A DNA stretch of 64,000 nt from Lingula anatina (Eukaryota > Animalia > Brachiopoda): positions 23,008,401-23,072,400 of the forward strand of contig CM120641.1 in the NCBI GenBank assembly GCA_051362555.1, read 5' to 3'. Made by a program: the position numbers and the translations under genes. Within the stretch, counting starts at the first letter, position 1, and the number at the start of each line of letters is the position of its first letter. The notes under the pieces were generated by a model. It was not told the origin of the DNA, made no database searches, and worked only from the letters and a program-made list of their open reading frames with translations. This document shows, piece by piece, positions 1 through 59,900 of this stretch.

Positions 1-98
1 GGGAAACAAGATTAGCACTTGTCGAGTTCTCCGGTGTATCCCAACCTCGGGATGGCAAGTTTTCCTCTAGAGAACCCTCCAATATAACCCAGCCTTGG

Positions 99-116
99 AT
101 TGTCTTAGTTTTTCAC
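99..116 (-). promoter_or_regulatory. Non-tRNA primer-binding-site position GTGAAAAACTAAGACAAT (also 4811-4828 and 9522-9539)
   Basis: Directly abuts the LTR 3' end, lacks the TGG of tRNA PBSs, and is complementary to the spliced LTR junction. Confidence 0.65.
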
Positions 117-177
117 TGTAGCGGACCACGAGTAATTGAAGCAACACCATTGGATAATACTGCCGTTTATTCACGCA

Positions 178-246
178 GTGAACAGAACTGAACAGAATCT
201 GAACAGAAACTGAACAAAAACTGAACAGAAACTGGACAAAACTGGT
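178..246. repeat. Short tandem repeat of about 10 nt (CTGAACAGAA-like, about 6 degenerate copies) in the LTR
   Basis: gtgaacagaa ctgaacagaat ctgaacagaaa ctgaacaaaaa ctgaacagaaa ctggacaaaa; present in all three LTRs. Confidence 0.85.
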
Positions 247-251
247 GAAAA

Positions 252-417
252 CTATAAAAAGAAAAGAAAAAAAAAATTATAATAACAATACAGTGAAATA
301 AAGATAAATAAACTATATATACTAAACAACTTAATTTATGTGATCTTAACAACAAATAATTGATCTTTGCATGTGTGTAAGTTTTTACTATTTATTATTT
401 AATTTTAAAACACTCAC
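252..417 (-). other. Predicted 166-nt GT-AG intron inside the LTR (also at 4964-5129 and 9675-9840)
   Basis: Consensus donor GTGAGT at 417-412, AT-rich interior, and a long pyrimidine tract ending TTTTTATAG at 253-252. Confidence 0.7.
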
Positions 418-937
418 ACTAAGACAATATCCAGACTCGCTTTCTCCGCTAGCAACTGGCTGCTCAGATACGGCCATAGCAATCTGAGCTGGTACTGTAA
501 ATTTATTTGATAACATAAATATACATGTGCGTGTTGGTCATGAAAATGCCACTCCCATACTAACATCAACTTTAATAAACACGATGCTCATAACTTATGT
601 TACTGATTAAACTTAAGTAAACTTATGTAAACTTTTGTAAACTACACAAAATATCTCTATATAAGTGAATTACACTTTATTTAACACAAATTTTACACAA
701 TCTACACGTAATATCGTAACATACCTCCACTCTGCCAGTAAGTATATAAATGACCGCGCAGAGTACATGCAACATCGGCTTTTATACAGTTCATCACATG
801 ACTAGATGAATAGATGTTACTTAATATTGAGCAGTGTTCTAGTGTCTTCTCTAACACAATATAAATAAACATAAGAACAGCGTGGAAAATATAAAATAAA
901 AATGATAACGTATATAATTTCTGCCGTGTCGGCAACA

Positions 938-949
938 CTCCGCATTTTA

Positions 950-992
<43 letters not shown>
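938..992 (-). other. Degenerate PPT (GTAAAATGCGGAG) preceded by a U42 tract (U41 in the second unit, 5663-5703)
   Basis: Lies immediately 5' of the LTR start on the element strand. Confidence 0.6.
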
Positions 993-995
<3 letters not shown>

Positions 996-1062
996 TAACA
1001 TCACATTTGCAATATATATACACTATATGTATGTACACTGAAAGATCATACAATCCACATTT

Positions 1063-4000
1063 TCAAATTGCATTTTTAAACATACAAATATCTGAAGCGT
1101 TGTCATTCCCTTCCAATAAAACAAGTTTTGTGATAGGTCTAGTATACGTGGACGTTTTAGTGCGAATGACTGCACTTCGAATTAAACCATCTCTACCGAC
1201 GTTGGTGCTTTCTACTATGGCCAGAGGCCAAAGTCCACGAGGAATTGATTTGTCTACTTCAAGGACAATGTCACCGACTTTCAAATTCCTCTGAATGCAA
1301 TGCCATTTTGAACGTGCCTGCAGTGTAGGTAAATATTCTCGAGTCCATCTTTTCCAAAATTGAGACACCAGAAATTGGACATGCCTCCACAGCTTTCTGT
1401 AAGTGTCAGCAATATCAAATTTTCCCCATGGATAGGAAGGAATTCCTCTGATTGCTAACAAATGATTTGGTGTGAGCGCATCACAATCATTCATATTCTC
1501 ACTGATTTTAGTAATGGGTCTTCCATTTACTATACACTCACATTCGCACAATACAGTCTGCAAAGACCAATCGGTTAAAGACTTAGCACAGTTTGCCAGC
1601 ACAGCCATCAAAATTTTTCTTATTGTCCGAATCATTCTCTCCCATACACCACCATAATGAGAAGCGTGTGGTGGATTAAAAATCCAATCAATTCCCTTTC
1701 GTCTCATTTCTGACATGATCTTTACTTTGTCTAACTGCCGTAAACATTTGTTCATTTCATTCACCGCCCCTACCAAGTTTGTGCCGTTATCACTGTAAAC
1801 TTTTGTGGGACAACCGCGTCTCGATACGAATCGTATGAAACCGTTGAGAAATGCGCTTGTTTCTAAATTTTCTAACACCTCCAAGTGAATCGCTCTTGTT
1901 TTAAAACACGTGAAAACGCATCCGTAGCGTTTAACTTCTGAGCGACCTACCCTGACTTTGAGAGGTCCAAAAATATCGATTCCAACTACATCAAAGGGGG
2001 GACCTCCTCCAGAACACCTATCACCGGGCAAATCAGCCATTTTTTGAATCATTGGCGACGCATACAAACGCCTACATACAACACACTCTCTTTGTATCTT
2101 TCTCACCAAGTTTCTATCACCCACTATCCAAAATCTTCTTCGTATCACACTTAGAGTCCATTCCGTACCTAAATGTGCACTTTCATGCGCTTCTCGAGCA
2201 ATCAAATTGGAAACAACATGCTTTCTAGGTAAAATCGATGGTTGCTTACACTTCAGTGCAGAATGAATTAGTCTACCACCGACAACTAGTGTGTCATTCT
2301 GAAGGACGGGAGAAAGATCGTGAATTTTACTTGATTTCGAAACTTGGCCTGTTTTGTTTAGAGACTTTAACTCGTGAGAGAAACTGTCTCTTTGTACCGC
2401 CTTGATGATTTCATCTTCCGTGATTTTTAGTTCAGCCGCAGTAATATGCCCTTTGTCTAGCGTCTTTGAGCAAGGGAATTTCTTAAATTTCTTAAGCTTT
2501 GAAACATTGTCTTTGTATGGGTCATACAGGCGTTCATTTGTGAGTTTCCTTTCTAAATTTTGCTGCCCTTTAACGGCCACACACCGATTGTTAGGAAATT
2601 TCGCGCAATTGTCTTTCCACGGGATTGGAAGAACATAATGACCGTCTTTCATGGAAACATTGTTTTCCCATAAACGGAGCACACTTTTGTCTTCATGAGA
2701 CAATTTTGTCCCCTTATCAATACCATCCCAACATCTGCCCTGAATTACATTCACAGACAAATAATTTACAGAGACATGAGGATTGAACGTATCATCTACC
2801 AACCCGTTGATAGTCCACCCTAAACGCGAACGCGCCGCGTATATGCCTGTTGTGCTATTTTCATCAACACGGACTTCTAATGGCATAATCAAATGGGCAT
2901 TATCCATTCCTATGATTATGTCAACTCCCTCTGCAGCAGTGCAGTTACTCAGAGGTATTCCCTTCAAATGCGGGAATGATTCCACATCAATCATGTCATT
3001 TGCTCTCACATTTACGCGAGGAATGACGAAAACATTTGACACGCGGTATTTCACCGACTTATTTTCAATTGGTGACGCGTCAAAAGAAACCACAGGTGAT
3101 CGCGCGCTCCTAGAGCCGTCAATTGTGTTCAAATGATATTCCACGGTGCTTTTAGTGCTGAGCGCTGCAGTGGACACTAAACGCTCCGAAATAAATGATG
3201 AAGTCGACCCACTGTCTAACAACGCTAATGCTTTGTGCACGCCATTTATCATCACTGAAACTATCGGTAGTTTCACGCTTTTGAGCTCGCCCGAATTAAT
3301 ACTGGTGTTCGTAATTTGACTTTGAGATCTGATTCGAGAATCACCGGCACTTTCCGTATGCGCGCGTGGAGGATTTTGCAACCTTGAATTTACATGAATG
3401 AACTTTGAATGTTTTTTACCGCAGCCCGGCACACTACAAACAGCAGGATTTCTGCAGTTACTTGCAAAATGTCCGGCAAACAAACAATTGAAACACAATT
3501 TATTTTGTCTCACAACATTCAAACGTTCTTGCACTCCTTTCTCTTTAAAAGCACTGCACTGAGATAAATGATGTTGACTACCACACAACACACATGGGAA
3601 AATACCATTCTTTTCATTCGTCCTTTGATCAACAGACTGATCACACGGATGACGTACGGGACAGCCATTGATATTCGACCCAATCACGGAGTGTTGGGTA
3701 GAAACAGTAGCAGTTACAAAAGAGTGATTTGACACATTTGCATATACTGACTCACCACCGTACACTGGGTCACTAGCATCTGCAGCAGTTTTTACCATGA
3801 AATCTACAAATTCCTGAAATTTAGGATATCGATCAATTTTGTGTTTGATTTCTAATGCACGCTTTCTCCATCGCTCAACAATCCAACTTTTACACCTACC
3901 CAGAATCTCCAATATGATCTTTTGATTTTCTATCTCACCTTTTAAGTTCAACTTTTCTAATGTTGTACACACAACTTGTAATTCATCAGCTAAACTCTGT

Positions 4001-4677
4001 AAATCTTTCACTTTCATAATCTTTTTACCATTTTTGAGATTTTCAATCAAAGAGCTAGCCACCAAATGATCATTTCCAAAACGGACCTTCAGAATCTGTC
4101 TGGCTTTGGTATAACCCTCCAAGCCCCCAATTAATACGCAATTTTTAATTGCTTCTTTGGCAGAACCAGTTGTAAACTGTATTAATCTGTTTAATTTCAT
4201 CTGAGGGTCTTTCATTTTTGAATCGATCATTTCGTCAAAAACCGTCATAAAATAATGAAAATTTTTGGCGTCTCCTTCAAATTTATCAATTGAGCAATGT
4301 GGGGTGTTTAAAAAAGTAAACAAACTTGCTTCATTGATTAAACTTGTTTCTGATTCATTTGACTTTTGCTTAAGAGAGTTTAAAAAAGTCATACCAAGTT
4401 TGATACCCTTGATTACTTTTTCTTCCACTTCCCGAAACCAATCTTCGCTTGCATCCATCTCTTCCTCGTCCAGATAACTGTGGTATTCATCATGAGCAGC
4501 CTCGAACGAAGAAAACGTCTCTTTCAACTGGTCAACCTTGCTGGCTACCATTTGAGTGTCCTCAGCAGCAACTGCCCTCTCGATGGCACCCAAGCACTTC
4601 GTCACGGCACCTTTTCGCGCCCGTCGTAGTTTTGACAGTCTGTCAATGTCCGGCTTTTCCTCTCCTGAGTCAGTCAT
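1063..4677 (-). CDS. BEL/Pao Gag-protease-integrase polyprotein, RT/RNase H deleted (about 1204 aa from the first ATG)
   Basis: Pao-type Gag (IDKFEGD) with Cys/His knuckles (CVLCGSQHHLSQC, CFNCLFAGHFASNC, CSVPGCGKKH); protease LLDSGS; integrase HHCC (HESAH...CVVC), GIDIFGP, SDNGTN, GVWERMIR; C-terminal LTPNHLL/FWKRW/RPITKL. No YVDD-type RT or DAS-type RNase H motif. The ORF-track start at 4794 is a TTG. Confidence 0.93.
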   Translation of the reverse strand: MTDSGEEKPDIDRLSKLRRARKGAVTKCLGAIERAVAAEDTQMVASKVDQLKETFSSFEAAHDEYHSYLDEEEMDASEDWFREVEEKVIKGIKLGMTFLNSLKQKSNESETSLINEASLFTFLNTPHCSIDKFEGDAKNFHYFMTVFDEMIDSKMKDPQMKLNRLIQFTTGSAKEAIKNCVLIGGLEGYTKARQILKVRFGNDHLVASSLIENLKNGKKIMKVKDLQSLADELQVVCTTLEKLNLKGEIENQKIILEILGRCKSWIVERWRKRALEIKHKIDRYPKFQEFVDFMVKTAADASDPVYGGESVYANVSNHSFVTATVSTQHSVIGSNINGCPVRHPCDQSVDQRTNEKNGIFPCVLCGSQHHLSQCSAFKEKGVQERLNVVRQNKLCFNCLFAGHFASNCRNPAVCSVPGCGKKHSKFIHVNSRLQNPPRAHTESAGDSRIRSQSQITNTSINSGELKSVKLPIVSVMINGVHKALALLDSGSTSSFISERLVSTAALSTKSTVEYHLNTIDGSRSARSPVVSFDASPIENKSVKYRVSNVFVIPRVNVRANDMIDVESFPHLKGIPLSNCTAAEGVDIIIGMDNAHLIMPLEVRVDENSTTGIYAARSRLGWTINGLVDDTFNPHVSVNYLSVNVIQGRCWDGIDKGTKLSHEDKSVLRLWENNVSMKDGHYVLPIPWKDNCAKFPNNRCVAVKGQQNLERKLTNERLYDPYKDNVSKLKKFKKFPCSKTLDKGHITAAELKITEDEIIKAVQRDSFSHELKSLNKTGQVSKSSKIHDLSPVLQNDTLVVGGRLIHSALKCKQPSILPRKHVVSNLIAREAHESAHLGTEWTLSVIRRRFWIVGDRNLVRKIQRECVVCRRLYASPMIQKMADLPGDRCSGGGPPFDVVGIDIFGPLKVRVGRSEVKRYGCVFTCFKTRAIHLEVLENLETSAFLNGFIRFVSRRGCPTKVYSDNGTNLVGAVNEMNKCLRQLDKVKIMSEMRRKGIDWIFNPPHASHYGGVWERMIRTIRKILMAVLANCAKSLTDWSLQTVLCECECIVNGRPITKISENMNDCDALTPNHLLAIRGIPSYPWGKFDIADTYRKLWRHVQFLVSQFWKRWTREYLPTLQARSKWHCIQRNLKVGDIVLEVDKSIPRGLWPLAIVESTNVGRDGLIRSAVIRTKTSTYTRPITKLVLLEGNDNASDICMFKNAI

Positions 4678-4828
4678 GGTCTGGTGTGACGGTGAAACAG
4701 CGTGTACCCTCGGGGAAACAAGATTAGCACTTGTCGAGTTCTCCGGTGTATCCCAACCTCGGGATGGCAAGTTTTCCTCTAGAGAACCCTCCAATATAAC
4801 CCAGCCTTGGATTGTCTTAGTTTTTCAC

Positions 4829-5649
4829 TGTAGCGGACCACGAGTAATTGAAGCAACACCATTGGATAATACTGCCGTTTATTCACGCAGTGAACAGAAC
4901 TGAACAGAATCTGAACAGAAACTGAACAAAAACTGAACAGAAACTGGACAAAACTGGTGAAAACTATAAAAAGAAAAGAAAAAAAAAATTATAATAACAA
5001 TACAGTGAAATAAAGATAAATAAACTATATATACTAAACAACTTAATTTATGTGATCTTAACAACAAATAATTGATCTTTGCATGTGTGTAAGTTTTTAC
5101 TATTTATTATTTAATTTTAAAACACTCACACTAAGACAATATCCAGACTCGCTTTCTCCGCTAGCAACTGGCTGCTCAGATACGGCCATAGCAATCTGAG
5201 CTGGTACTGTAAATTTATTTGATAACATAAATATACATGTGCGTGTTGGTCATGAAAATGCCACTCCCATACTAACATCAACTTTAATAAACACGATGCT
5301 CATAACTTATGTTACTGATTAAACTTAAGTAAACTTATGTAAACTTTTGTAAACTACACAAAATATCTCTATATAAGTGAATTACACTTTATTTAACACA
5401 AATTTTACACAATCTACACGTAATATCGTAACATACCTCCACTCTGCCAGTAAGTATATAAATGACCGCGCAGAGTACATGCAACATCGGCTTTTATACA
5501 GTTCATCACATGACTAGATGAATAGATGTTACTTAATATTGAGCAGTGTTCTAGTGTCTTCTCTAACACAATATAAATAAACATAAGAACAGCGTGGAAA
5601 ATATAAAATAAAAATGATAACGTATATAATTTCTGCCGTGTCGGCAACA
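4829..5649 (-). repeat. LTR copy 2 (shared between units)
   Basis: Matches copy 1 at offset +4712 and has TGT...ACA termini. Confidence 0.85.
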
Positions 5650-5661
5650 CTCCGCATTTTA

Positions 5662-5706
<45 letters not shown>

Positions 5707-5773
5707 TAACATCACATTTGCAATATATATACACTATATGTATGTACACTGAAAGATCATACAATCCACATTT

Positions 5774-8700
5774 TCAAATTGCATTTTTAAACATACAAAT
5801 ATCTGAAGCGTTGTCATTCCCTTCCAATAAAACAAGTTTTGTGATAGGTCTAGTATACGTGGACGTTTTAGTGCGAATGACTGCACTTCGAATTAAACCA
5901 TCTCTACCGACGTTGGTGCTTTCTACTATGGCCAGAGGCCAAAGTCCACGAGGAATTGATTTGTCTACTTCAAGGACAATGTCACCGACTTTCAAATTCC
6001 TCTGAATGCAATGCCATTTTGAACGTGCCTGCAGTGTAGGTAAATATTCTCGAGTCCATCTTTTCCAAAATTGAGACACCAGAAATTGGACATGCCTCCA
6101 CAGCTTTCTGTAAGTGTCAGCAATATCAAATTTTCCCCATGGATAGGAAGGAATTCCTCTGATTGCTAACAAATGATTTGGTGTGAGCGCATCACAATCA
6201 TTCATATTCTCACTGATTTTAGTAATGGGTCTTCCATTTACTATACACTCACATTCGCACAATACAGTCTGCAAAGACCAATCGGTTAAAGACTTAGCAC
6301 AGTTTGCCAGCACAGCCATCAAAATTTTTCTTATTGTCCGAATCATTCTCTCCCATACACCACCATAATGAGAAGCGTGTGGTGGATTAAAAATCCAATC
6401 AATTCCCTTTCGTCTCATTTCTGACATGATCTTTACTTTGTCTAACTGCCGTAAACATTTGTTCATTTCATTCACCGCCCCTACCAAGTTTGTGCCGTTA
6501 TCACTGTAAACTTTTGTGGGACAACCGCGTCTCGATACGAATCGTATGAAACCGTTGAGAAATGCGCTTGTTTCTAAATTTTCTAACACCTCCAAGTGAA
6601 TCGCTCTTGTTTTAAAACACGTGAAAACGCATCCGTAGCGTTTAACTTCTGAGCGACCTACCCTGACTTTGAGAGGTCCAAAAATATCGATTCCAACTAC
6701 ATCAAAGGGGGGACCTCCTCCAGAACACCTATCACCGGGCAAATCAGCCATTTTTTGAATCATTGGCGACGCATACAAACGCCTACATACAACACACTCT
6801 CTTTGTATCTTTCTCACCAAGTTTCTATCACCCACTATCCAAAATCTTCTTCGTATCACACTTAGAGTCCATTCCGTACCTAAATGTGCACTTTCATGCG
6901 CTTCTCGAGCAATCAAATTGGAAACAACATGCTTTCTAGGTAAAATCGATGGTTGCTTACACTTCAGTGCAGAATGAATTAGTCTACCACCGACAACTAG
7001 TGTGTCATTCTGAAGGACGGGAGAAAGATCGTGAATTTTACTTGATTTCGAAACTTGGCCTGTTTTGTTTAGAGACTTTAACTCGTGAGAGAAACTGTCT
7101 CTTTGTACCGCCTTGATGATTTCATCTTCCGTGATTTTTAGTTCAGCCGCAGTAATATGCCCTTTGTCTAGCGTCTTTGAGCAAGGGAATTTCTTAAATT
7201 TCTTAAGCTTTGAAACATTGTCTTTGTATGGGTCATACAGGCGTTCATTTGTGAGTTTCCTTTCTAAATTTTGCTGCCCTTTAACGGCCACACACCGATT
7301 GTTAGGAAATTTCGCGCAATTGTCTTTCCACGGGATTGGAAGAACATAATGACCGTCTTTCATGGAAACATTGTTTTCCCATAAACGGAGCACACTTTTG
7401 TCTTCATGAGACAATTTTGTCCCCTTATCAATACCATCCCAACATCTGCCCTGAATTACATTCACAGACAAATAATTTACAGAGACATGAGGATTGAACG
7501 TATCATCTACCAACCCGTTGATAGTCCACCCTAAACGCGAACGCGCCGCGTATATGCCTGTTGTGCTATTTTCATCAACACGGACTTCTAATGGCATAAT
7601 CAAATGGGCATTATCCATTCCTATGATTATGTCAACTCCCTCTGCAGCAGTGCAGTTACTCAGAGGTATTCCCTTCAAATGCGGGAATGATTCCACATCA
7701 ATCATGTCATTTGCTCTCACATTTACGCGAGGAATGACGAAAACATTTGACACGCGGTATTTCACCGACTTATTTTCAATTGGTGACGCGTCAAAAGAAA
7801 CCACAGGTGATCGCGCGCTCCTAGAGCCGTCAATTGTGTTCAAATGATATTCCACGGTGCTTTTAGTGCTGAGCGCTGCAGTGGACACTAAACGCTCCGA
7901 AATAAATGATGAAGTCGACCCACTGTCTAACAACGCTAATGCTTTGTGCACGCCATTTATCATCACTGAAACTATCGGTAGTTTCACGCTTTTGAGCTCG
8001 CCCGAATTAATACTGGTGTTCGTAATTTGACTTTGAGATCTGATTCGAGAATCACCGGCACTTTCCGTATGCGCGCGTGGAGGATTTTGCAACCTTGAAT
8101 TTACATGAATGAACTTTGAATGTTTTTTACCGCAGCCCGGCACACTACAAACAGCAGGATTTCTGCAGTTACTTGCAAAATGTCCGGCAAACAAACAATT
8201 GAAACACAATTTATTTTGTCTCACAACATTCAAACGTTCTTGCACTCCTTTCTCTTTAAAAGCACTGCACTGAGATAAATGATGTTGACTACCACACAAC
8301 ACACATGGGAAAATACCATTCTTTTCATTCGTCCTTTGATCAACAGACTGATCACACGGATGACGTACGGGACAGCCATTGATATTCGACCCAATCACGG
8401 AGTGTTGGGTAGAAACAGTAGCAGTTACAAAAGAGTGATTTGACACATTTGCATATACTGACTCACCACCGTACACTGGGTCACTAGCATCTGCAGCAGT
8501 TTTTACCATGAAATCTACAAATTCCTGAAATTTAGGATATCGATCAATTTTGTGTTTGATTTCTAATGCACGCTTTCTCCATCGCTCAACAATCCAACTT
8601 TTACACCTACCCAGAATCTCCAATATGATCTTTTGATTTTCTATCTCACCTTTTAAGTTCAACTTTTCTAATGTTGTACACACAACTTGTAATTCATCAG

Positions 8701-9388
8701 CTAAACTCTGTAAATCTTTCACTTTCATAATCTTTTTACCATTTTTGAGATTTTCAATCAAAGAGCTAGCCACCAAATGATCATTTCCAAAACGGACCTT
8801 CAGAATCTGTCTGGCTTTGGTATAACCCTCCAAGCCCCCAATTAATACGCAATTTTTAATTGCTTCTTTGGCAGAACCAGTTGTAAACTGTATTAATCTG
8901 TTTAATTTCATCTGAGGGTCTTTCATTTTTGAATCGATCATTTCGTCAAAAACCGTCATAAAATAATGAAAATTTTTGGCGTCTCCTTCAAATTTATCAA
9001 TTGAGCAATGTGGGGTGTTTAAAAAAGTAAACAAACTTGCTTCATTGATTAAACTTGTTTCTGATTCATTTGACTTTTGCTTAAGAGAGTTTAAAAAAGT
9101 CATACCAAGTTTGATACCCTTGATTACTTTTTCTTCCACTTCCCGAAACCAATCTTCGCTTGCATCCATCTCTTCCTCGTCCAGATAACTGTGGTATTCA
9201 TCATGAGCAGCCTCGAACGAAGAAAACGTCTCTTTCAACTGGTCAACCTTGCTGGCTACCATTTGAGTGTCCTCAGCAGCAACTGCCCTCTCGATGGCAC
9301 CCAAGCACTTCGTCACGGCACCTTTTCGCGCCCGTCGTAGTTTTGACAGTCTGTCAATGTCCGGCTTTTCCTCTCCTGAGTCAGTCAT
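5774..9388 (-). CDS. Second identical copy of the Gag-protease-integrase polyprotein
   Basis: Translation is identical to that of 1063-4677. Confidence 0.93.
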   Translation of the reverse strand: MTDSGEEKPDIDRLSKLRRARKGAVTKCLGAIERAVAAEDTQMVASKVDQLKETFSSFEAAHDEYHSYLDEEEMDASEDWFREVEEKVIKGIKLGMTFLNSLKQKSNESETSLINEASLFTFLNTPHCSIDKFEGDAKNFHYFMTVFDEMIDSKMKDPQMKLNRLIQFTTGSAKEAIKNCVLIGGLEGYTKARQILKVRFGNDHLVASSLIENLKNGKKIMKVKDLQSLADELQVVCTTLEKLNLKGEIENQKIILEILGRCKSWIVERWRKRALEIKHKIDRYPKFQEFVDFMVKTAADASDPVYGGESVYANVSNHSFVTATVSTQHSVIGSNINGCPVRHPCDQSVDQRTNEKNGIFPCVLCGSQHHLSQCSAFKEKGVQERLNVVRQNKLCFNCLFAGHFASNCRNPAVCSVPGCGKKHSKFIHVNSRLQNPPRAHTESAGDSRIRSQSQITNTSINSGELKSVKLPIVSVMINGVHKALALLDSGSTSSFISERLVSTAALSTKSTVEYHLNTIDGSRSARSPVVSFDASPIENKSVKYRVSNVFVIPRVNVRANDMIDVESFPHLKGIPLSNCTAAEGVDIIIGMDNAHLIMPLEVRVDENSTTGIYAARSRLGWTINGLVDDTFNPHVSVNYLSVNVIQGRCWDGIDKGTKLSHEDKSVLRLWENNVSMKDGHYVLPIPWKDNCAKFPNNRCVAVKGQQNLERKLTNERLYDPYKDNVSKLKKFKKFPCSKTLDKGHITAAELKITEDEIIKAVQRDSFSHELKSLNKTGQVSKSSKIHDLSPVLQNDTLVVGGRLIHSALKCKQPSILPRKHVVSNLIAREAHESAHLGTEWTLSVIRRRFWIVGDRNLVRKIQRECVVCRRLYASPMIQKMADLPGDRCSGGGPPFDVVGIDIFGPLKVRVGRSEVKRYGCVFTCFKTRAIHLEVLENLETSAFLNGFIRFVSRRGCPTKVYSDNGTNLVGAVNEMNKCLRQLDKVKIMSEMRRKGIDWIFNPPHASHYGGVWERMIRTIRKILMAVLANCAKSLTDWSLQTVLCECECIVNGRPITKISENMNDCDALTPNHLLAIRGIPSYPWGKFDIADTYRKLWRHVQFLVSQFWKRWTREYLPTLQARSKWHCIQRNLKVGDIVLEVDKSIPRGLWPLAIVESTNVGRDGLIRSAVIRTKTSTYTRPITKLVLLEGNDNASDICMFKNAI

Positions 9389-9539
9389 GGTCTGGTGTGA
9401 CGGTGAAACAGCGTGTACCCTCGGGGAAACAAGATTAGCACTTGTCGAGTTCTCCGGTGTATCCCAACCTCGGGATGGCAAGTTTTCCTCTAGAGAACCC
9501 TCCAATATAACCCAGCCTTGGATTGTCTTAGTTTTTCAC

Positions 9540-10360
9540 TGTAGCGGACCACGAGTAATTGAAGCAACACCATTGGATAATACTGCCGTTTATTCACGCA
9601 GTGAACAGAACTGAACAGAATCTGAACAGAAACTGAACAAAAACTGAACAGAAACTGGACAAAACTGGTGAAAACTATAAAAAGAAAAGAAAAAAAAAAT
9701 TATAATAACAATACAGTGAAATAAAGATAAATAAACTATATATACTAAACAACTTAATTTATGTGATCTTAACAACAAATAATTGATCTTTGCATGTGTG
9801 TAAGTTTTTACTATTTATTATTTAATTTTAAAACACTCACACTAAGACAATATCCAGACTCGCTTTCTCCGCTAGCAACTGGCTGCTCAGATACGGCCAT
9901 AGCAATCTGAGCTGGTACTGTAAATTTATTTGATAACATAAATATACATGTGCGTGTTGGTCATGAAAATGCCACTCCCATACTAACATCAACTTTAATA
10001 AACACGATGCTCATAACTTATGTTACTGATTAAACTTAAGTAAACTTATGTAAACTTTTGTAAACTACACAAAATATCTCTATATAAGTGAATTACACTT
10101 TATTTAACACAAATTTTACACAATCTACACGTAATATCGTAACATACCTCCACTCTGCCAGTAAGTATATAAATGACCGCGCAGAGTACATGCAACATCG
10201 GCTTTTATACAGTTCATCACATGACTAGATGAATAGATGTTACTTAATATTGAGCAGTGTTCTAGTGTCTTCTCTAACACAATATAAATAAACATAAGAA
10301 CAGCGTGGAAAATATAAAATAAAAATGATAACGTATATAATTTCTGCCGTGTCGGCAACA
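9540..10360 (-). repeat. LTR copy 3 (outermost 5' LTR)
   Basis: Matches copy 1 at offset +9423 and is bordered by non-element sequence at 10361. Confidence 0.88.
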
Positions 10361-11079
10361 GTTCCTGACGCCTTTTTGACATTTGACAACCGTTTTGGTG
10401 GGTTTTTCTCTCTTAAAAATTTGCTTACAGCTAGGATAGACGATAATAATTTTGGTCCTAGCTTACAGATAGCCCCCCTACTCCCTTTCGGCCCTTTGAC
10501 CGTAGATAACTGATCAGCATTTTCTGACCAAACTTTCAAATAAGAGGAAACACGTGCTGCGATAAATCATTAAACAATAAGTCTGATTTTAAAGAAGTAA
10601 GACTGATCAAGGATGAGAACAAAGACAAATTGTTTAAGTTTTTAATCGTGCCGTTGAAGCTAAATGGTAGGCCTATATTATCTACAAATCAGCGGATCTA
10701 CAATAAACAACAACAAAAATATGACAATAACCAAATACTTTATTAAAACCTAATTTTCCATGAAAGTTATTCACAGTGGATAGAGGGTTAAAACAGTCTG
10801 ATTAGAATATGTTTTCAGCACATAAACAGCTGGCACATGCACTGGGTGCAATAGGCCTATACCTGTCTGTTGCACAAAGTTGAACTCCCTTGTGCACACT
10901 AGTAATGGATCTCTGTTTCTGTTATGCCTTTAAGTGGAAGTTGTAGACCAACGTCAACAGCATATCCCAAATTCTGCATTATTTATAAAAAAAATTCATT
11001 GCATTTAAGCTTTATCTGACAGAATTTAGTCACCAATAACTTGCAGCCGCTGCCATTTCTCTGTATGTGTGTCTGCACG

Positions 11080-16030: not shown

Positions 16031-18238
16031 ATGGCTGAGGCAAGTGAGAACAAGCAGGCAGCAAAGAAAGTTGAGAACAGTTTGATTGCTATGACTAAAG
16101 GGGAGAGCAACACCAATCTCAATATGGAACTTGTAATGAGATCTTATGCAAACTGGGAACATTTCCTGACCCCAGCCCCAATGTCAATTGCCATGTTAGG
16201 GGAGCTGATGATAATAGCAAGTGAGACCGACTTCTCCCTGGCCAAAAATCCTCCAACAGAAGGTTTTCAACACATGAAGCATCCTTCATCTTTTCGTGCC
16301 TCATTATTACAAGTATCCAATGCTGCTTATGTGGCATTTGACCAGGCTAATTCCAGTATGGACCAGATTCGTATCCGAACATTAGCAATCCCTTCTGATG
16401 TTAAGAATGCCTTGAAGATCATCATAGCAGGTGAAAATAATGAGATCAAAAGCATTGTGCCCAGGAAACTTGTCAGGATTAAAGAGTCAGCGGATAATTG
16501 TCTACAGTTGGCAAAAGAAACAGAGTCGAAGTTTCAGAGTGTGATGTTGCTGATAGCTGAAATCCTGGAGGCATGCACAAAAACCCAGGGCGAAAATGAC
16601 CAGGAGGTGGCAACCGCTCTAACTACCATAAAATTTTTGAAAGAAAGGGTGGAAAGATATCAACAAGAACAACAAAATGAACAGAAAGACCTGCAAGAAC
16701 TGAAAGAAGAGGTCCGAAAAGCCCACAAGCAGATAGAAGCTGCCATGGATGGGATGCCCTCTGCTTGGGAAACCTTGGGAATGTCTGTCATTTCGGCAGT
16801 TACCACTGGTCTTGTACATAAGTTTACCGGGATGTTAGGGTGTGTAGCAACTGCAACAGCTCAGTTACAAACACAGATAATTGAAAGTGCAAAAGAATTT
16901 GCTAATTCCAGCCAAGATTCTACTCTGAACCCTGATCAGGCCCAGCCAACAACACCCGTACAAAAGGCTAATAGTAATGTATTCGGGAAATGTTCAGAAA
17001 TATTAAAGTTTGCTGAAATCCTTAGTGATTTCATCATCAAAATGAAATCAGGCAATGAGCAGGAGACTAAGCTCAAGCTCTCGCAATATATACAAGACAC
17101 TGAAAAAGGTTCAAAGTATGTGCAGCTTCAATTCAACGCCCTTAGAGAAGAAGTGGAGAGGGAAATTGATGCTGATGAAGGAGTCAGAGGTCCTGCCATC
17201 GAAATATGTACGACAGGAGTAGAAATTGCCCAGGATCTTACCAAACTCAATGGTGAAATGAACCAACATCAAAATGAGATCGAAGAAATCAGGGGACGAG
17301 TGAAAAAGCTAATTAAAGAGGCGCAATTGTTTCAAACACGTGCAATGAAATGGCTTAAAGTTCCTCCATTTCCTTCCACCACACCACAACATGCTGTTGC
17401 ACAAGAGAAGTGTGCCTTGTCTGCAGGGCAAGATGTCTCGATTGCATTCACTGAGACTGCACGTTTTAAGACAGAACAGGCAATAAGTCTTCTAAAGAAT
17501 GCTGAAGAACGGCATGACAAAATGGCTAAAGAAATGAGGGAAAAAAATGAGGCTATCATGAATTTGATGCAGGAAATGTCAAAGCAAGATGTACGTAGGC
17601 TGGACTTGGACACCATCCGATCCACTCTATCGCGTGGAATGACTTCTTTGGCAAGAATAAGGGACCAATGGGCAAAGCTTGTAGAGTTCTTCAAAATGAT
17701 GTCCCATATAATGGAATGCGCTCTAACAGAATCCCTTGAAAAGTTCACCATCACTGTGGATGGAAAATGTGAAGACAAAACAGCGGGCCCTTTGACCCTT
17801 TCCCAGGCTGTCCGTGATGTGTTATTTGAAGAGGCTTACATGGCCATCAAGATCAGTCACCTGGTCAACATGCTGTCCACCACATATTGTGAGGTTTCAA
17901 AGGACCACATCATGGGTCGTATTGGGGTCCTCTACCATATCGTGGCAATGGACCCAAAATACCAGTTAGAAGATATGAAACATCAGCAAAAACAACTTCT
18001 TCATGGTTGTCAGGAAGCTCAGAGGAAGATCCAAGAGCTTGCTTGCTCCAATGCTGAGGAGTTTCATGCCACCATCCAAGGAAGAATAAATCGTATTGAG
18101 CATGAAGTCAACGCTTTGCTGCCTCCCCCAGCAACCCCCGAAGCAGCTGCTGCTATAGAGCAGAAGAGAGTTGAAATCAAGGAAGTCATTGCAAGAGCTG
18201 ACCAGGAAGAAGATCAAAATGTAACTGAATGGTTGTAA
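16031..18238 (+). CDS. Uncharacterised 735-aa all-alpha/coiled-coil protein (zgc:162509-like family; possible ClyA/Hbl-type pore-forming fold)
   Basis: Long uninterrupted ORF with a splice acceptor (ttttaatttctttatag) directly before the ATG. N-terminal YANWEHFLTPAPMSIAMLGEL...HPSSFRASLLQV motif recalled from this family. A central hydrophobic segment lies between coiled coils. Confidence 0.85.
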   Translation: MAEASENKQAAKKVENSLIAMTKGESNTNLNMELVMRSYANWEHFLTPAPMSIAMLGELMIIASETDFSLAKNPPTEGFQHMKHPSSFRASLLQVSNAAYVAFDQANSSMDQIRIRTLAIPSDVKNALKIIIAGENNEIKSIVPRKLVRIKESADNCLQLAKETESKFQSVMLLIAEILEACTKTQGENDQEVATALTTIKFLKERVERYQQEQQNEQKDLQELKEEVRKAHKQIEAAMDGMPSAWETLGMSVISAVTTGLVHKFTGMLGCVATATAQLQTQIIESAKEFANSSQDSTLNPDQAQPTTPVQKANSNVFGKCSEILKFAEILSDFIIKMKSGNEQETKLKLSQYIQDTEKGSKYVQLQFNALREEVEREIDADEGVRGPAIEICTTGVEIAQDLTKLNGEMNQHQNEIEEIRGRVKKLIKEAQLFQTRAMKWLKVPPFPSTTPQHAVAQEKCALSAGQDVSIAFTETARFKTEQAISLLKNAEERHDKMAKEMREKNEAIMNLMQEMSKQDVRRLDLDTIRSTLSRGMTSLARIRDQWAKLVEFFKMMSHIMECALTESLEKFTITVDGKCEDKTAGPLTLSQAVRDVLFEEAYMAIKISHLVNMLSTTYCEVSKDHIMGRIGVLYHIVAMDPKYQLEDMKHQQKQLLHGCQEAQRKIQELACSNAEEFHATIQGRINRIEHEVNALLPPPATPEAAAAIEQKRVEIKEVIARADQEEDQNVTEWL

Positions 18239-27702: not shown

Positions 27703-40836
<13,134 letters not shown>

Positions 40837-42291
40837 TCATAACAAATGAACATGCTGTAAGTGTTGGAAGTGGACAAGATAAGGACCTGCTTGTGTTGCC
40901 TGTGCCTCAAACAAATAAAAAAAACCTTGAAAAAATGCAGTATTTTGTGCATTTTTCAATATTTGTATATTTGGGTATGCTTTTGTATTATCAAATACTT
41001 AAGACAGTCCCATGGTTTTTGTAATGATAATCAGTAGGGCATGAAGTCATTTTCATGATATTTATGTTGGTTTCTCAGTGAATCAGGGGAGAATGCTGAT
41101 AAGTCCTCCCTTCCCTCACTCTTTTTATTTATTTATTGTATTTTTTCTGTATGTCAACAACAGCCCAAACTTTTTTTAATAAAACGAAACAAATACATGC
41201 TTGTTTTGGCCTTTGGGCGTCTTTTTTCCTCATGCAGAATTCACCCCTTTGTCCTAGAAAGGGAAGGGGAGCTCAAAGGGTTTATAATTATATCATGTCA
41301 AACAATAACAGAGAGTCAGAATTTTGTTGTGAGAAATTAAGAATGGAACGATTCCTGTTTGGGACTTCTGTCAGTTGTTGACATTATTTATACAAGGTTT
41401 AAGATCAAAAATCTTTTAGGCATTATTTCTAAATAATTCAGTTGGTTTGGGGATACAGAACTAACAACATACCTATAATTTGGTTGTCCTTTTTTTCCTC
41501 CAAATAAACCTGAGACGGGGAAAAAATTTTAACATACAGGAATGTTTTTCACATTAGGAAAAAAATTGAGGATCAACATATTGCCTTTTGGTAGATTGAA
41601 AGAGTGTAAATAGCTGTTGTGATTTGCTTTCACATAAAAATACCTATTTTGCAGGCATTATATTTTGGTAAAGTTTTGCTCTGTATGCAAAGAGAATATC
41701 TTTATGGCTCTGTACACAAATTTGCAGTCTTATAATGTTGATCTGCAGTAACTTACTGTTATATTACAATATTCATATATTGAATAGCCTTTAGTAGCTT
41801 TTTTCTCCTTTAAGAAAAAAATCACTACTACTCTTAGAAAAAGATATTGCACTATTTTTGTTGCAGCTACTAAGATAAAAGTTGCAAGTATTATATTGTA
41901 ACACTAAATGAAATAAATGGTGCAATGCCATCGAGTCCATTGGCTCAAAAGAGGGGCACAGGAAGAGAATATCTAGATGTCAACTTTTGTTATTGTTAAC
42001 ATGGACAGACCTGTGCATTGGGGAGGTACCCTGCTTTATTTGATTTACAGAGTTTAAATATCAAAACTGTCAATGATAGTCTCAGTTCAGGCATGTGTTC
42101 ATCTCTGGGATATATGTTTTCACTTTTTGGTAGATAGTGCTTTTGATGCTCTTAAATATAATTTTTCTTTCCACAAATCGTAATAATTAACAGATTTATT
42201 TTGACCTGTATTGGAGTGCAATCAAGCTAAATGATTACATTGCTGGGCATTGGATTATTTTGGTTATGCTCTCAAGAGCTCCCAATGTATA

Positions 42292-53900: not shown

Positions 53901-56900
53901 ATCTTCTTGGTGGCTGTCAATTTCTGAGGCAACTAACTCTAAAAATTCCATCATAATTTCAGAATCTGTAAAAACATGGAACATTTATTAATGTTTGTTT
54001 GAAAAACCAATCAGAGACTCAGTGAATATATGTCACTCATCTCAACTTTCATTTACATCCCTTAATTCTTTAAACCGTAATATTTTAAACTACCTACGTG
54101 TATTTGTTTGTATACGTAATCAATTATTCCTCTTCATTAAAGATTTGTGCTCCATCTCTTTCAACTGAAACTACTTTCATTCGATGAAAATGTAATGTCA
54201 GTCAAAATAATTTTGAATATTACCAGAATTTCTGTGCTCCTCCATGAATATATCCAAAAACTGTTGACCAGGGTCCTGCCCAACAAACAGTGGTGCCGTC
54301 TGGAGGCTTGTTTTACCATTTCTGATGATGATATCCTTTATCACAGTGACAAAGCTCAGGTAGCTCTCCTGAAAGACAGATCAAAAATAAAGATATTCCA
54401 GTCTTGAAAAAAATTTAGGGCCACGTAGAAATAAGACATAAGTAACTGATGCATATGCAGTACTCTTTAAATACACAAGTCTTGTGAAATGTTGGCATTT
54501 CATTTTAGATCTAAAATCTAAATGTATGTCTGACATATTATTATTATTATTTTTGTAAACAAACACATGCATTAATTAGGCCCTAATTCTAGTAATTCAA
54601 ATGTTTGTTTGTTTTTATTAAAATTTCATCAGAACAGGGCAACAGCAAGAGTACATTTGTATTTCATGTATTCTTCATTGATACATGTATGAAGAAAGCA
54701 GTCATCTTGTTTTGATAAAGTGTACTAATCAAAAATAAATGCAATTATCTTCTTTTGATAAAGAGTGCTTTTCAAAAATGCAATAAGTACAACTACAAGA
54801 AAAATGTACTATTGTTTAGAATGCTTCTCAGACATGCTCCATAAAACCATTAGTGGGTTAGACTGAGCACCAGCTCCATCCAGGGAAAACATTTCAAGTG
54901 AAATAAGGTACTTATAAATCAACCATCAGGAAGAAAGAAATTACATATCAACCATTATGTGGAAAGCAATGGAAATTTGAAGAAAAGTTAAATGACAGTC
55001 ACAGCACTGACACTCGATTCTTGATGGACTTTGGATAATGAAGTGAGGGAAGGGACAAAAAAATAGACCTGCAACTTTTGCCCCCCTCCCCTCCCCCCAA
55101 AATAAAAAAAAAATCTGCTTTAATGTACAAATGATGTGCCTTTAAGTACTTGAGAGGAGCCTATACGTTTTATCTGAGTTTGCATTCACAATCAACAAAA
55201 ATGCCAATAAAAAACTTCTTGCTAGCATTTTGAGATTATTCATTGGTGCTAAATCATGTTTTGTATGTGTAGGTATTGCACAGAGGCAATTCTCAAAGGC
55301 TATTTGTTACTTAATGTTCATAAATACTGCACAGTCTATCTTGCATTGCTTTTCATTAAATAAGATCATTAATTATTTTTGACTTGCTGCAGGTCTTGAG
55401 CATGTCTGCGTGAATTTTTAGGGAACGTAAAGGAAAAATAATGGAATGTGTTCCTCTCCTGAGGACATCACAATATAATGCCATATGCTCCCTACTGAAT
55501 TTGAAACAAGTCTTGCATATGGCACACAAAGTACTTATCAAACTATTTAGGTTATATAATATTCATATTTTCAAATCCATTTACCACTCCTTGTCTCAAA
55601 TTGGTCAGTTATATTCTCTCTATGAAAATATCAAATCTTTATAGTCTTTGAATCATTTGGTACCCTATATACACAGAACATAAGCTTCGCCATAGACACC
55701 TCACCCACAAAATCATATAAGAGTACCCTAGATAAGGCACTGTAACAAAGTAAAAACATCATTCCTATTGAAGGCAAATCAATATCTAGATTCCCTGCGG
55801 CTTATGCTTCATTACACAATTATCTCAGCCATCTGTTCTGGGAACTGAGGTTGTTCAGAGTTAGGTTAATGTATGTATATATGCCAGTATTGATTCTGGG
55901 TTTGCTACAAAGATCAATAAAACACAGCTTCCAGACACGCGCAAAGAGAAATTACATCAAGAACAAAGACATTAACTTCAGTCAGGTCCGAGATTAGATC
56001 CTGATGTGATCTAGGATATTTTTTGTCTTTGAACTCTATCTGCTCAGTGTGACAGACAGACACGAAGAGGATGAGAGACTTATTACTGCTACTAAAATAG
56101 AGAAAACCCAAGATAGCATTATCATTGTGAGCTTTTTTCAGAGGTGACTTCAAGAGTTCTTCCATTAACAAAAACAATAACAACAGTTATTTGGATTTTA
56201 TATTTACATAACTGAACAACACTGGGGGAAATGGAATCTGGAAATATGTGTGTTATATATCTTTTGTTCAGTTTAAGCAGTATTTCCCAGATATTTTGCT
56301 TTCAAGACAGATATCCAATACCAAGGGGCAAGTTTGTTCCAGAATCCCCTCTGAAAGATGATGGGTTGACAATATTAGACTGTGGCCTGACAGTCACAGA
56401 GTTGTCAGCCATGAAGATGGAAAAGTATATCTTTATTGATAGAGCAGACATTATCTACTTAACCCTAAACTTTCCCCCAGGGACTAAAATGGACACGGAT
56501 GTTTCCATTATGGTGGAGCTGAACAAGTGGATCTGGGTGGAAAATCACTCTGGGAAGCCAATGCTGGAGATGGACTTCAGGTTTGCAGCATATTCTCTGA
56601 ATACTTTATCTTTGCATACTAAAAATTTGGAACTGGACATTACATTGCACCCGCCATTGTGTCTGAATACACTCAAACTTGAGCATAAGATTTTACTCAT
56701 CAAAACAACAGTCAGAGGTATATTAGGGAAAAATTCTACCATCAAGTCATCCTTGTGTTATTCCCGCCTTGCGCCATATCAGCAGGCAGCAGATAGTTTC
56801 TACTTCCAGCACAAATGCTGTGACTTGGCCCAGCAAGACAAATATGACAGTGTAAATATCACCCACTCTGGTTTCGGCTACTGCGAGTACCTGTTGTTAG

Positions 56901-59900
56901 AAATAGGTGGGTTGTATATGACACTGCTGTACACCCTGATATTCCTGGTGAGCCCATTGGCCATCAGCCTGCTTCCCACAGAGGAACAGGTGTATACTGT
57001 GAACAGACTTGGGAGGATCGCTAACCTGAGAGAACCTTGCTACAAATATAAAAGAATGGACTCTGTGGGACATAACATGAAGGGTAAATGTGTCCCCAAA
57101 GAGTTGATATGTGGAAGACCAATGAGTGTAACTTTAGAAAGTCCACAGAGTCCTCCAGTTCTACAAAGCAATGGTGTTGAGGGCACTGAAGTTGCAGGCG
57201 TGGCTGCAGATGTTTTGACAGATCAAAATTGTCCAGGACAAAATGATGGCGTAAGGCAGCAAGACCAAGAGCCCATACATCAAAATGACCAGCTGCAAGT
57301 ACTCCCGAGGCAGAAACACGTCAGGTTGTCCATAGAAGGTGAAGACACCACATTGCCCCCTGGTGACCAAGATGTCTGCCCGAGTTCTATGGGGAGTACG
57401 ACAACCCAGCACCACATTTGCTTAACACTAGAGGAGCCCCTGCATAGTGAGAGGATTGGTAACAGGTCCACTGACGCCTCACCAACTGATCAAATGACAA
57501 AATCATCAAACTGCCATGTCAAGAAAAGAAACACTGTTGTCATTCTCAGCAATGCTGATGAAGCCGTCACCATCACTGAAGATGTAGCTGTGGAGGAGAG
57601 TGATAATCTTCAAAATCAAACTCTGGACAGAGCTGCTGGAGCTCAGAATCAGCATCATCTGGCAAGAAATGATGAGCAGCCTGAGGAAGAGCAATGTGGG
57701 TGCCCAAGCCACTATATTCCCCTGAACTCCTCCACCCCAGTTCGCATCTCTCATCCATTCAGTTACCTCTTTCTGATGCATGTAAGAAGTAGCTGGGTTT
57801 GTCGCCTTAGGAGGCTGGTGTTTTTCCTGGTGATATACCCCAGTGTTGTGTACGCTGTCATTGCAGTGGATTTCCTAATGTATCACAGTGATATCAAACT
57901 GAGGGAAAAATTAGAAACTAATCTCAGCATCTTTGGAAAGATAGCAGATTTTGACTATTTTGATCATTACTTAAATGCCAACTCCTACACTGAGCCATCT
58001 TTCATGGTTGGGCTTCTCTATCTTGTGATGTATGTTATAATGTCATTCTTCAGTGCCATAGAAGGCAGTCTTACATCAATGGTGGATCAACTGATGGTGA
58101 ACAACAAACACCTTGGTGTGCTGCGGCTCCCTGACTGCTTACACATACCGGAGAGGGAGCTTCACACTATAGAGAAAATGTATCACAAAATGGCATTCCG
58201 TTTATCACTCATTGCGGATCCAAGATTCTGGAAATTTTGGGTTTTGGAAATCAAGGAGATCTTGTTTAGCTGTTCAGGCAAATCCACCAAAGAAATTTTG
58301 GTCAAACCATTCAAATTATTGATGTGTTTCGTGTCCCTGGCATTCCTGTTTCCTTTGGTCAACTGTCTCCCCTGGGAATACTTAGTAACTATGGTAACAG
58401 ACCAGGCAGAGGCTAACAGACTGATCAGCTACTGTAAAACTAGATACAAGAACTTTGGAAAAGGATTCTTATTTCTAATTGGTGGAAGCATCACTGTGCT
58501 GGGTCTTATGTTTGCCCACCTGATATTCATAAAAACATGCCAGAAACTAACCCTGGTTGTTCTGTACACCATAAAAGGCATTGTGAAATACTATGCTGAT
58601 ATACTTCCCATCCTGACCATCATTTTGGTAGGGGCCTACTATGTCTTCAGTACCTTCTACAAACTAGATGAAAAATACAGGTCAGTCAAAAAGATGATAT
58701 TTGAGGAATGTGAGAAAGAATGGGAAAATCAAAGAATTAAGGCAGAAGAAGCAAACAAACCACCCCTAGCTCAGTCCCTGGTAGTGTATAGAAAAGATGG
58801 TATTCCCATGATTCCCAGAGCTCTGTATAAAATCATAATTGACAAACATGTGCCTGTGCGTGAAGCAGAACTCCCTGCCCTAGCTAAACTGATACTGATA
58901 GCTTTATTTCTCTCATATGTGGCTGAAATTGTGGATGTTTTCAGTATTCACAACATCACTGGGTTGGGACATGCGGTGGCCACATTTTTTGCTGCTACCC
59001 TACCAAAGCTGCTCGATTTCCTACACTCCAAGAGTAGTATTGAAGAAGAGTGTCTAAAACACAAAATAAGAGCCACAATTAAAGATTACTATCAAACAAA
59101 TCTTGTCATCACTGAAGAAGAACTACTGAACCACACGAATAACAATATCCTCCTTGACAATGAAGGGTTTCCCAGGGAAACGTTTGTGTAATTGTCTGCC
59201 TAGGTGATATGGTTTCTGGCCAGCATATTTTATGCCATAAAATGTTATACATGTTTTCCAGAGTGAGCTGTACATGTACAAGGCACAACATATAAAACTG
59301 CACATTAACATATTAATTTGAAAGAATTAAAATTCAATCATGAACATCTCTTCAATTTTATTTCAATGATTCAGGCTAAAATTCACAAAAGATGATGAAA
59401 TAATTTGCTGTGCATGTGACATGAGTCAACTGTTGGCAAAAAAACAGTTCACTCTATTCAATTCAGCATAAAAGCCACTTCAAGCTATTGAATTATGAAT
59501 AGTCACTTACAAGTCAAGATCATCGAATTGTGAAAAAAGTATGAATCACTACATCAATATTTCACATGCTATTAGTTGGCTTTAGATTTGATATCTTTAC
59601 ATCTATGAGTTCTCATCAGATCATACGCATTGTGCACATCCATAAAAGTGCAACCAAATGTGAAGCTGTGATTAAAGCTTTGGCCAATTGTTACTTGAGT
59701 TAATGAGTACAATTTCATGTACAAATTAGACTGTGTATCTAAATAAACATTAGTTCATTTGCTTCTATCTCTGTAATTTTTTCCTAGATTACTTATGAAG
59801 TAATTTTGTATGAGAGCCTGTCTAATGGCAGGAATATTTTTAGAAATGCTTGCATAAACAATCTTACATCTAAAGATGTGGCATCCTAGGTTTAAAAGAT

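Follow-up and report, generated by a model that had tools for sequence, protein, structure and literature searches.

The window analysed here, a 64,000-nt stretch of the Lingula anatina genome (contig CM120641.1), begins with a tandem array of LTR retrotransposon units read on the minus strand (Table 1). The units are 4711 nt long and neighbouring units have an LTR in common; the array (1-10360) contains three or more LTRs together with two complete internal regions, identical except for one T. It could be real, like the Tf1/Tf2 arrays described in the accessible part of PMC11042837, or an assembly duplication. Its outer LTR edge (10360/10361) is also marked by 10 RNA reads that exit the window there. 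These reads, from one of the RNA runs described below (X4), track the flank, exit at the LTR edge 10361 and show two differences in the flank; they represent either an empty allele or a paralogous repeat.

Translation and Pfam searches identified the protein features of BEL/Pao elements, namely a DUF1759-type Gag with Cys-His boxes, a DSG protease and a DUF5641 integrase. All top homologues carry the BEL/Pao domain set, a Lingula anatina protein (73%) is its nearest neighbour on the integrase tree, and the LTR (821 nt, TGT...ACA) falls within the BEL/Pao range of 0.2-1.2 kb with TG...CA ends. Protease precedes integrase, and the reverse transcriptase (RT) and RNase H region carried by full-length relatives is absent; relative to one of these (P0020), about 545 aa are absent in frame, with the break near residues 771-774. 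The window element is a young non-autonomous BEL/Pao derivative and, having neither RT nor RNase H, must obtain these enzymes in trans. The T runs just 5' of the polypurine tract (PPT) are unusually long on the element strand (41 nt at 5663-5703 and 42 nt at 952-993). Elsewhere in the window, two intron-less ORFs with no Pfam match were seen on the plus strand, one at 16031-18238 (735 aa, helical or coiled-coil by look) and one at 56216-59191 (991 aa; a signal peptide is likely, and several segments are hydrophobic). Diverged duplicated blocks at 33173-35841 and 38485-41677, about 5.3-6.1 kb apart and 76-88% alike, are probably tandem gene copies.

Table 1. Features of the BEL/Pao array at the start of the window, in the order of the element strand.
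Feature	Position	Strand	Remarks
LTR, 821 nt, TGT...ACA, 5' LTR of first unit	9540..10360	-	identical to 4829-5649 and 117-937
TATA-like box	10202..10209	-	motif position
Upstream extension of predicted primer duplex, 7 bp	9854..9860	-	RNAduplex; pairs with 9521-9514 across bulges
Exon-1 half of predicted primer, 11 nt	9841..9851	-	pairs with PBS positions 8-18
Predicted GT-AG intron, 166 nt	9675..9840	-	donor GTGAGT at 9840; pyrimidine tract and TATAG end
Exon-2 half of predicted primer, 7 nt	9668..9674	-	pairs with PBS positions 1-7; 3' end of the primer predicted at 9668, at a putative cut
AATAAA poly(A) signal	9589..9594	-	3' of predicted cut
PBS, non-TGG (starts GTG)	9522..9539	-	exact complement of the predicted spliced junction
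Open frame, 1253 aa	5774..9535	-	first ATG 9388; Gag (DUF1759), protease, integrase (H2C2, DUF5641)
41-nt T run, then short purine-rich PPT-like stretch	5650..5703	-	before next LTR
Second LTR	4829..5649	-	common to tandem units; same predicted intron and primer halves (exon-1 half 5140-5130)
Second internal region	1063..4828	-	PBS 4828-4811, ORF 4824-1063; equals the first but for one T in a run
Third LTR with PBS	99..937	-	LTR 937-117, PBS 116-99; array continues past window start

An earlier note on this DNA had proposed that the sequence following the LTR, the presumed primer-binding site (PBS), is matched by two separated LTR segments that become adjacent when a candidate intron is removed. 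On re-reading of the minus strand, all of its coordinates were right: the 18 nt after the LTR begin GTG and not TGG, the joined LTR halves are the exact reverse complement of these 18 nt, and the best unspliced matches are only 11 and 7 nt. Lacking a TGG start, the PBS excludes a mature tRNA 3' end as the primer, and ARAGORN found no tRNA genes in the window. The GG extension of the duplex described in that note is real and belongs to the 7-bp upstream extension (one G-U pair, two bulges), with which the duplex reaches -31.7 kcal/mol. Copies of the arrangement at 99-428 and 4811-5140 are indeed present, but they lie in identical LTRs of the tandem array (0 mismatches), and the three copies therefore count as one independent case. 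That the match ends exactly at the LTR boundary agrees with the TGT...ACA termini and with the relatives described below, with the qualification that every LTR in the window precedes internal sequence, so that a 3' end is not displayed there.

Among all GT-AG pairs in the 821-nt LTR, the 18-nt match was the best junction match, the runner-up reaching 10 nt, and about 5e-6 matches of this length would be expected by chance (1617 GT-AG pairs, 17 split points). The segment from 9840 to 9675 also looks like an intron in its own right, to judge by its splice sites and composition: its acceptor is the most pyrimidine-rich AG in the LTR (19/20), its donor is tied second best, and its GC content is 18%, compared with 40-41% for the flanking sequence. 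A YTRAY branch motif was not found in this predicted intron. A second candidate LTR intron can be seen on the minus strand at 10147-9918, from the best-scoring donor of the LTR (10147) to an acceptor at 9918; one read pair from RNA run X6 halts near 9920, which is compatible with splicing of this second candidate and does not demonstrate it.

To extend the comparison beyond the single case in the window, an alignment of 56 proteins was used to collect related loci (prefixed L), comprising the best 80 of at least 377 metagenome loci and 26 loci in genome contigs; a search of viral contigs gave no relative. In 13 loci the LTR end was fixed by a second LTR copy, and removal of 2 duplicates and addition of the window element gave a set of 12. 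A non-TGG PBS was found in 11 of these 12 fixed-end elements, the relatives among them being drawn from the best 80 of at least 377 metagenome and 26 genome loci. Under a strict splice filter, 5 of the 12 had a junction-spanning complement of 11-18 nt that started 0-3 nt from the LTR end, whereas swapped PBSs gave no more than 5 nt in 130 pairs. A relaxed filter, set after L059 and L100 had been seen by eye, gave junction-type complements in 7 of the 12 (18 nt in the window element, 15 in L047, 11 in L082, L093, L100 and L104, and 10 in L059) and contiguous, intron-less complements in another 4 (11 nt in L029, L069 and L084, 10 nt in L021). Random internal 30-mers were as good under this filter in at most 3 of 1000 draws, and swapped pairs reached at least 10 nt in 1 of 130.

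The modal perfect match among these elements is about 11 bp, and in L082, L093, L100 and L104 the perfect part on the exon-1 side is only 3 nt. The cleanest case is L100, which has a 5-bp target-site duplication (TSD), an ACA end and a junction match running from the first base after the LTR; TSDs of 5 bp were seen in 4 of the 12 related loci checked. A poly(A) signal lies 3' of the predicted cut in the window element and in the 8 other complement-bearing fixed-end elements for which one is listed. The sole fixed-end element with a TGG PBS, L098, had neither a junction nor a contiguous LTR complement. This locus (NZ_OU909470.1), a complete BEL/Pao element of the tRNA type that has a 5-bp TSD, lies within a Wolbachia chromosome assembly, and the other hits among the 26 that fall in prokaryote genome contigs are probably animal DNA in bins. 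A search without anchoring, restricted to perfect matches of 14 nt or more, was set aside; only L046/L047 and L052 were credible there, most matches being 10-12 nt long.

The held-out set consisted of 49 other loci with 5' sequence (44 without such sequence were excluded), and every ACA was tried as the LTR end. Complements of at least 10 nt were found in 20 of the 49 loci, compared with 63 of 1960 null draws, or 1.6 loci expected. Eleven of these were junction-type, two of them being the same element, and nine were contiguous. Three held-out hits are doubtful: L023, L052 (best hit elsewhere, with a junction hit found in other passes) and L096 (an unrelated inverted repeat). A second pass, in which the spacer was widened to 6 nt and the 3' LTR was included after some negatives had been inspected, gave 21 of 49 loci with at least 11 nt (58 of 1225 null draws), 12 of them junction-type and the longest 16 nt (L037). 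Taken together, the passes contain 21 distinct junction-type and about 13 contiguous relatives from the listed loci. A few of the 10-11 nt matches may be due to chance, and 29 of the 49 held-out loci (28 in the second pass) had no match above threshold, several of them having no LTR sequence in the contig. In L078, a 10-nt junction match over a 37-nt intron with a non-consensus GTTTGT donor was seen by eye at about 170-215; it was missed by the filters and is not counted.

A chance match or an assembly artefact would be conceivable for the window alone, where three identical copies make one independent case and the array may be an assembly duplication. Against the expectation for the window given above and the held-out excess of 20 over 1.6, such an origin is largely refuted by the fixed-end and held-out tests and retains next to no probability. 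From these sequence comparisons, complementarity of the PBS to the element's own LTR is a real, lineage-wide feature.

The PBSs themselves are diverse, with 26 different 10-mers in 27 elements, none of them TGG and 21 of them starting GT after a short spacer; with this diversity, a fixed host RNA cannot supply the primers. The predicted primer ends in ...AC in 21 of the 27 (the PBS proper beginning GT after a spacer of 0-4 nt), mostly followed by C or G in the LTR, which could reflect a cut-site preference. The narrow position of the intron, 4-8 nt from the primer end, was excluded as evidence because the search itself demands 3 nt on each side.

The earlier note had predicted that in related BEL/Pao elements the spliced LTR junction should co-vary with the PBS, and this was found: non-TGG PBSs track the splice junction of their own LTR. 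Two sister elements, L082 and L104, agree at 78 of 87 positions around one splice site and at 101 of 109 around the other. Their exon-1 halves differ at -3 and -1, and both changes are matched by changes in the PBS, with a third, more distal PBS change unmatched; cross-pairing the LTR of one with the PBS of the other abolishes the junction match. Across about 20 elements, the start of exon 2 co-varies with the start of the PBS. These comparisons point to the following reading, to which we assign a probability of roughly two in three: in the window element, as in most of the relatives studied, the non-tRNA PBS is complementary to a stretch of the element's own LTR that serves as the primer of reverse transcription, and in the window element this stretch is split by a GT-AG intron, the complement being predicted to form only once that intron is spliced. 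Taken separately, derivation of the primer from the LTR is very probable, and its assembly by splicing in the intron-bearing families is likely.

That note had further suggested that splicing would be coupled to replication competence. In about 13 relatives, however, the complement is not interrupted by an intron, and for the lineage as a whole splicing is thus dispensable. The intron was present in both LTRs in 5 of 5 relatives checked. In L069, an acceptor immediately precedes the exon-2 half in the 5' LTR, whereas the PBS complement in the 3' LTR is contiguous, and the homology between them breaks exactly there; this locus may be a chimera or hybrid, its LTRs being 88% alike and its donor lying outside the contig. 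On a quick tree of 40 rows, built from the integrase only and with L104 dropped (84-aa hit), intron-split and intron-less types are interspersed, with 9 changes of which at least 5 are forced and no clustering relative to shuffles. A single origin was not supported on this tree (support 94, with L052 outside). Such mixing would be expected from repeated intron loss when spliced RNA is reverse transcribed, and is also compatible with gains.

RNA reads were taken from seven runs of the same species label (X1-X7), 6-25% of each being read, and 0-18 reads per run could be placed; X2 and X3 had none on the window. Read depth over the LTR is mostly 0-2, with a maximum of about 6 (antisense, X6), and under the usual strand convention the majority of reads on the LTR are sense. 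No read with the spliced joint 9840/9675 was found in these seven shallow runs (threshold 3 reads, with 9672-9714, which spans the acceptor, skipped), a result compatible with splicing as well as with its absence. In X6, a run that also has antisense reads, at least one sense read crosses the donor unspliced. Sense reads cover 9841-9971, possibly from the 3' LTR copy, and the TATA-like box precedes the donor by about 360 nt; transcription would start about 30 nt 3' of this box and hence about 330 nt 5' of the donor. Three sense fragments end at about 9840 (X4, within 1-2 nt of the donor), 9847 and 9853. As primer 3' ends these were rejected as evidence, there being three fragments and binned depth only.

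In predicted folds of unspliced RNA, the probability of pairing between exon 2 and the PBS was 0.00-0.04 in the six elements tested. In spliced folds it rose to 0.95 in the window element, 0.91-0.96 in L100, 0.39-0.91 in L047 and 0.32-0.92 in L059, whereas in L082 and L104 it was 0.00 in cis even when spliced. The folds of these last two would speak either against a simple cis fold-back or for chaperone-assisted or trans pairing.

The folds and reads also bear on self-priming without splicing. Here the PBS would act as a splint for both halves on unspliced RNA, forming a three-way junction from which the intron loops out; alternatively, the free exon-1 end produced in the first step of splicing would prime alone. 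The intron would serve expression only. The 11-nt exon-1 half of the window element does pair with the PBS in unspliced RNA (P 0.77), unspliced sense RNA exists, the three fragments include one that ends beside the donor, and an intron without a role in priming would persist without special rules. The near-absence of exon-2 pairing in all six unspliced folds argues against such priming, however, and covariation of the exon-2 start with the PBS would be unneeded if exon 1 alone primed. The 3-nt exon-1 part of L082, L093, L100 and L104, which nevertheless co-varies in L082 and L104, is likewise at odds with it, and priming without splicing is considered unlikely.

A second alternative keeps a host primer. 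The LTR-PBS duplex would then be a structural or regulatory stem, acting in packaging, translation control or PBS protection, and a host tRNA, tRNA half or other small RNA would prime. Priming by tRNA-Arg or tRNA-Gly is indeed given for the family in the ICTV profile (PMC8742986), and half-tRNA primers occur in Ty1/copia elements according to the accessible part of PMC6317226. Such a primer is difficult to reconcile with the missing TGG start and the PBS diversity described above, with a match that ends 0-6 nt from the LTR end, where priming must begin, and with the lack of an LTR complement in L098. In addition, no Rfam family scored above its gathering score at 9400-10400, the one weak match being far below its own. 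This alternative was judged to have a low probability.

The complement could also be a relic or by-product, left by template switching or an old duplication and no longer priming in a non-autonomous copy. The window element has no RT or RNase H, and tandem arrays with shared LTRs can come from recombination instead of transposition (PMC11042837, in the portion available). Yet all 18 nt match perfectly, the match persists with other letters in relatives that have only about 40-50% integrase identity, and it follows the exon boundaries, which requires spliced RNA at some step. A relic is considered highly improbable.

Under the preferred reading, in which the primer comes from the element's own LTR and is joined by splicing, the cycle would run as follows. 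Its starting point is visible in the DNA: the 18-nt complement spans the junction, ends at the LTR boundary and co-varies in relatives. A transcript beginning in the LTR upstream of the donor would be spliced at 9840/9675, and the spliced R segment is predicted from the folds to pair with the PBS, primer and PBS being on one molecule or on two. The RNA would then be cut 3' of ...UUCAC, probably by the RNase H that belongs to a trans-supplied RT, and minus-strand DNA would be primed from the 3' end so created, by analogy with Tf1. Strand transfer to a still-unspliced 3' copy of R would allow the intron to be inherited; the poly(A) signal (9594) lies 3' of the predicted cut, so that R overlap for this transfer remains. 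Copying of the primer during plus-strand synthesis would rewrite the PBS in each cycle, which would explain the tight covariation, and occasional use of a spliced 3' copy would give rise to intron-less families.

Priming by the element's own spliced RNA, as originally put forward, is partly supported, in that the comparative predictions held. In a simple cis form, the intron would disappear within one cycle if the 3' LTR copy did not stay unspliced, as RT copies the 3' R after transfer. The intron would be kept if splicing favoured the 5' copy or if the primer came in trans from a separate LTR RNA that is spliced. A broader and more tentative proposal is that a large animal BEL/Pao clade may be tRNA-independent, with a primer built by the host spliceosome and the intron acting as a switch between the two R copies. 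The cap-proximal copy, or a short trans LTR transcript, would be spliced, cut after ...AC and used as primer, and the 3' copy would stay unspliced, offer no competition for the PBS, accept the transfer and transmit the intron.

Belpaoviridae are described as having an 18-nt PBS complementary to tRNA-Arg or tRNA-Gly, and BEL/Pao replication is called poorly understood in the same ICTV profile (PMC8742986). With the tRNA-primed members of this family (Semotivirus), the window element has in common the DUF1759 Gag, the protease, the H2C2/DUF5641 integrase and TGT...ACA LTRs, and its relatives the 5-bp TSDs; it differs in having no tRNA-Arg or tRNA-Gly PBS. Because its PBS starts GTG instead of TGG, it is filed as a variant of the BEL/Pao lineage and not as a canonical semotivirus.

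The closest parallel in priming is Tf1, in which the transcript's initial 11 bases anneal to the PBS and the cut by RNase H falls between bases 11 and 12 (accessible text of PMC7175516). The Tf1 primer is copied into single-stranded PBS DNA (PMC11042837, in part), and Tj1 as well as plant Tcn1 and TAR (Houba, Osr-1) are proposed to self-prime in the same way in the available portions of PMC4600332 and PMC6317226. As far as these partial sources go, the likeness to Tf1/Tf2/Tj1 and Tf1/sushi lies in the absence of a tRNA, a PBS complementary to the element's own LTR RNA and the presumed need for a cut to free the primer 3' end, as well as in length, the Tf1 primer being 11 nt and the modal perfect match in the BEL/Pao relatives about 11 bp. 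The differences, within the same limits, are that the Tf1 primer is contiguous, unsplit and formed by the first 11 nt of the transcript, whereas the predicted BEL/Pao primer sits 100-500 nt into the LTR, probably far downstream of the start, and in most positive elements is interrupted by a predicted spliceosomal intron. The complementarity of the window element reaches 18 nt only across the predicted junction. Tf1/sushi elements also have Ty3/gypsy chromovirus proteins, and with its BEL/Pao domains the window element is not one of them. Cer7, a BEL/Pao element of C. elegans, has reportedly been proposed to supply its own primer, from a separate tRNA-like segment of the element and not from an LTR splice junction.

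The statement in the earlier note that no described case was known agrees with a literature search, in which no BEL/Pao self-priming or splice-built primer was found; supplements, Repbase reports, GyDB and subscription journals lay outside its scope. A term search of the accessible text of three BEL/Pao papers (PMC3118150, PMC6238403 and PMC554778) returned no mention of PBS or tRNA priming, and the available parts of PMC3601003, PMC8220671 and PMC3286476 contained nothing on BEL/Pao self-priming or splice-built primers.

If true, a splice-assembled primer would represent a novel mode of initiating reverse transcription and place transposition under host splicing control. It raises the question of how one RNA, or a pair of RNAs, keeps spliced and unspliced copies of the same repeat. 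Self-priming in BEL/Pao elements would explain the failure of PBS finders on such elements. It would also extend self-priming from some Ty3/gypsy and Ty1/copia groups to a third LTR superfamily, and would bear on whether self-priming preceded tRNA priming, a question posed in the accessible part of PMC3601003.
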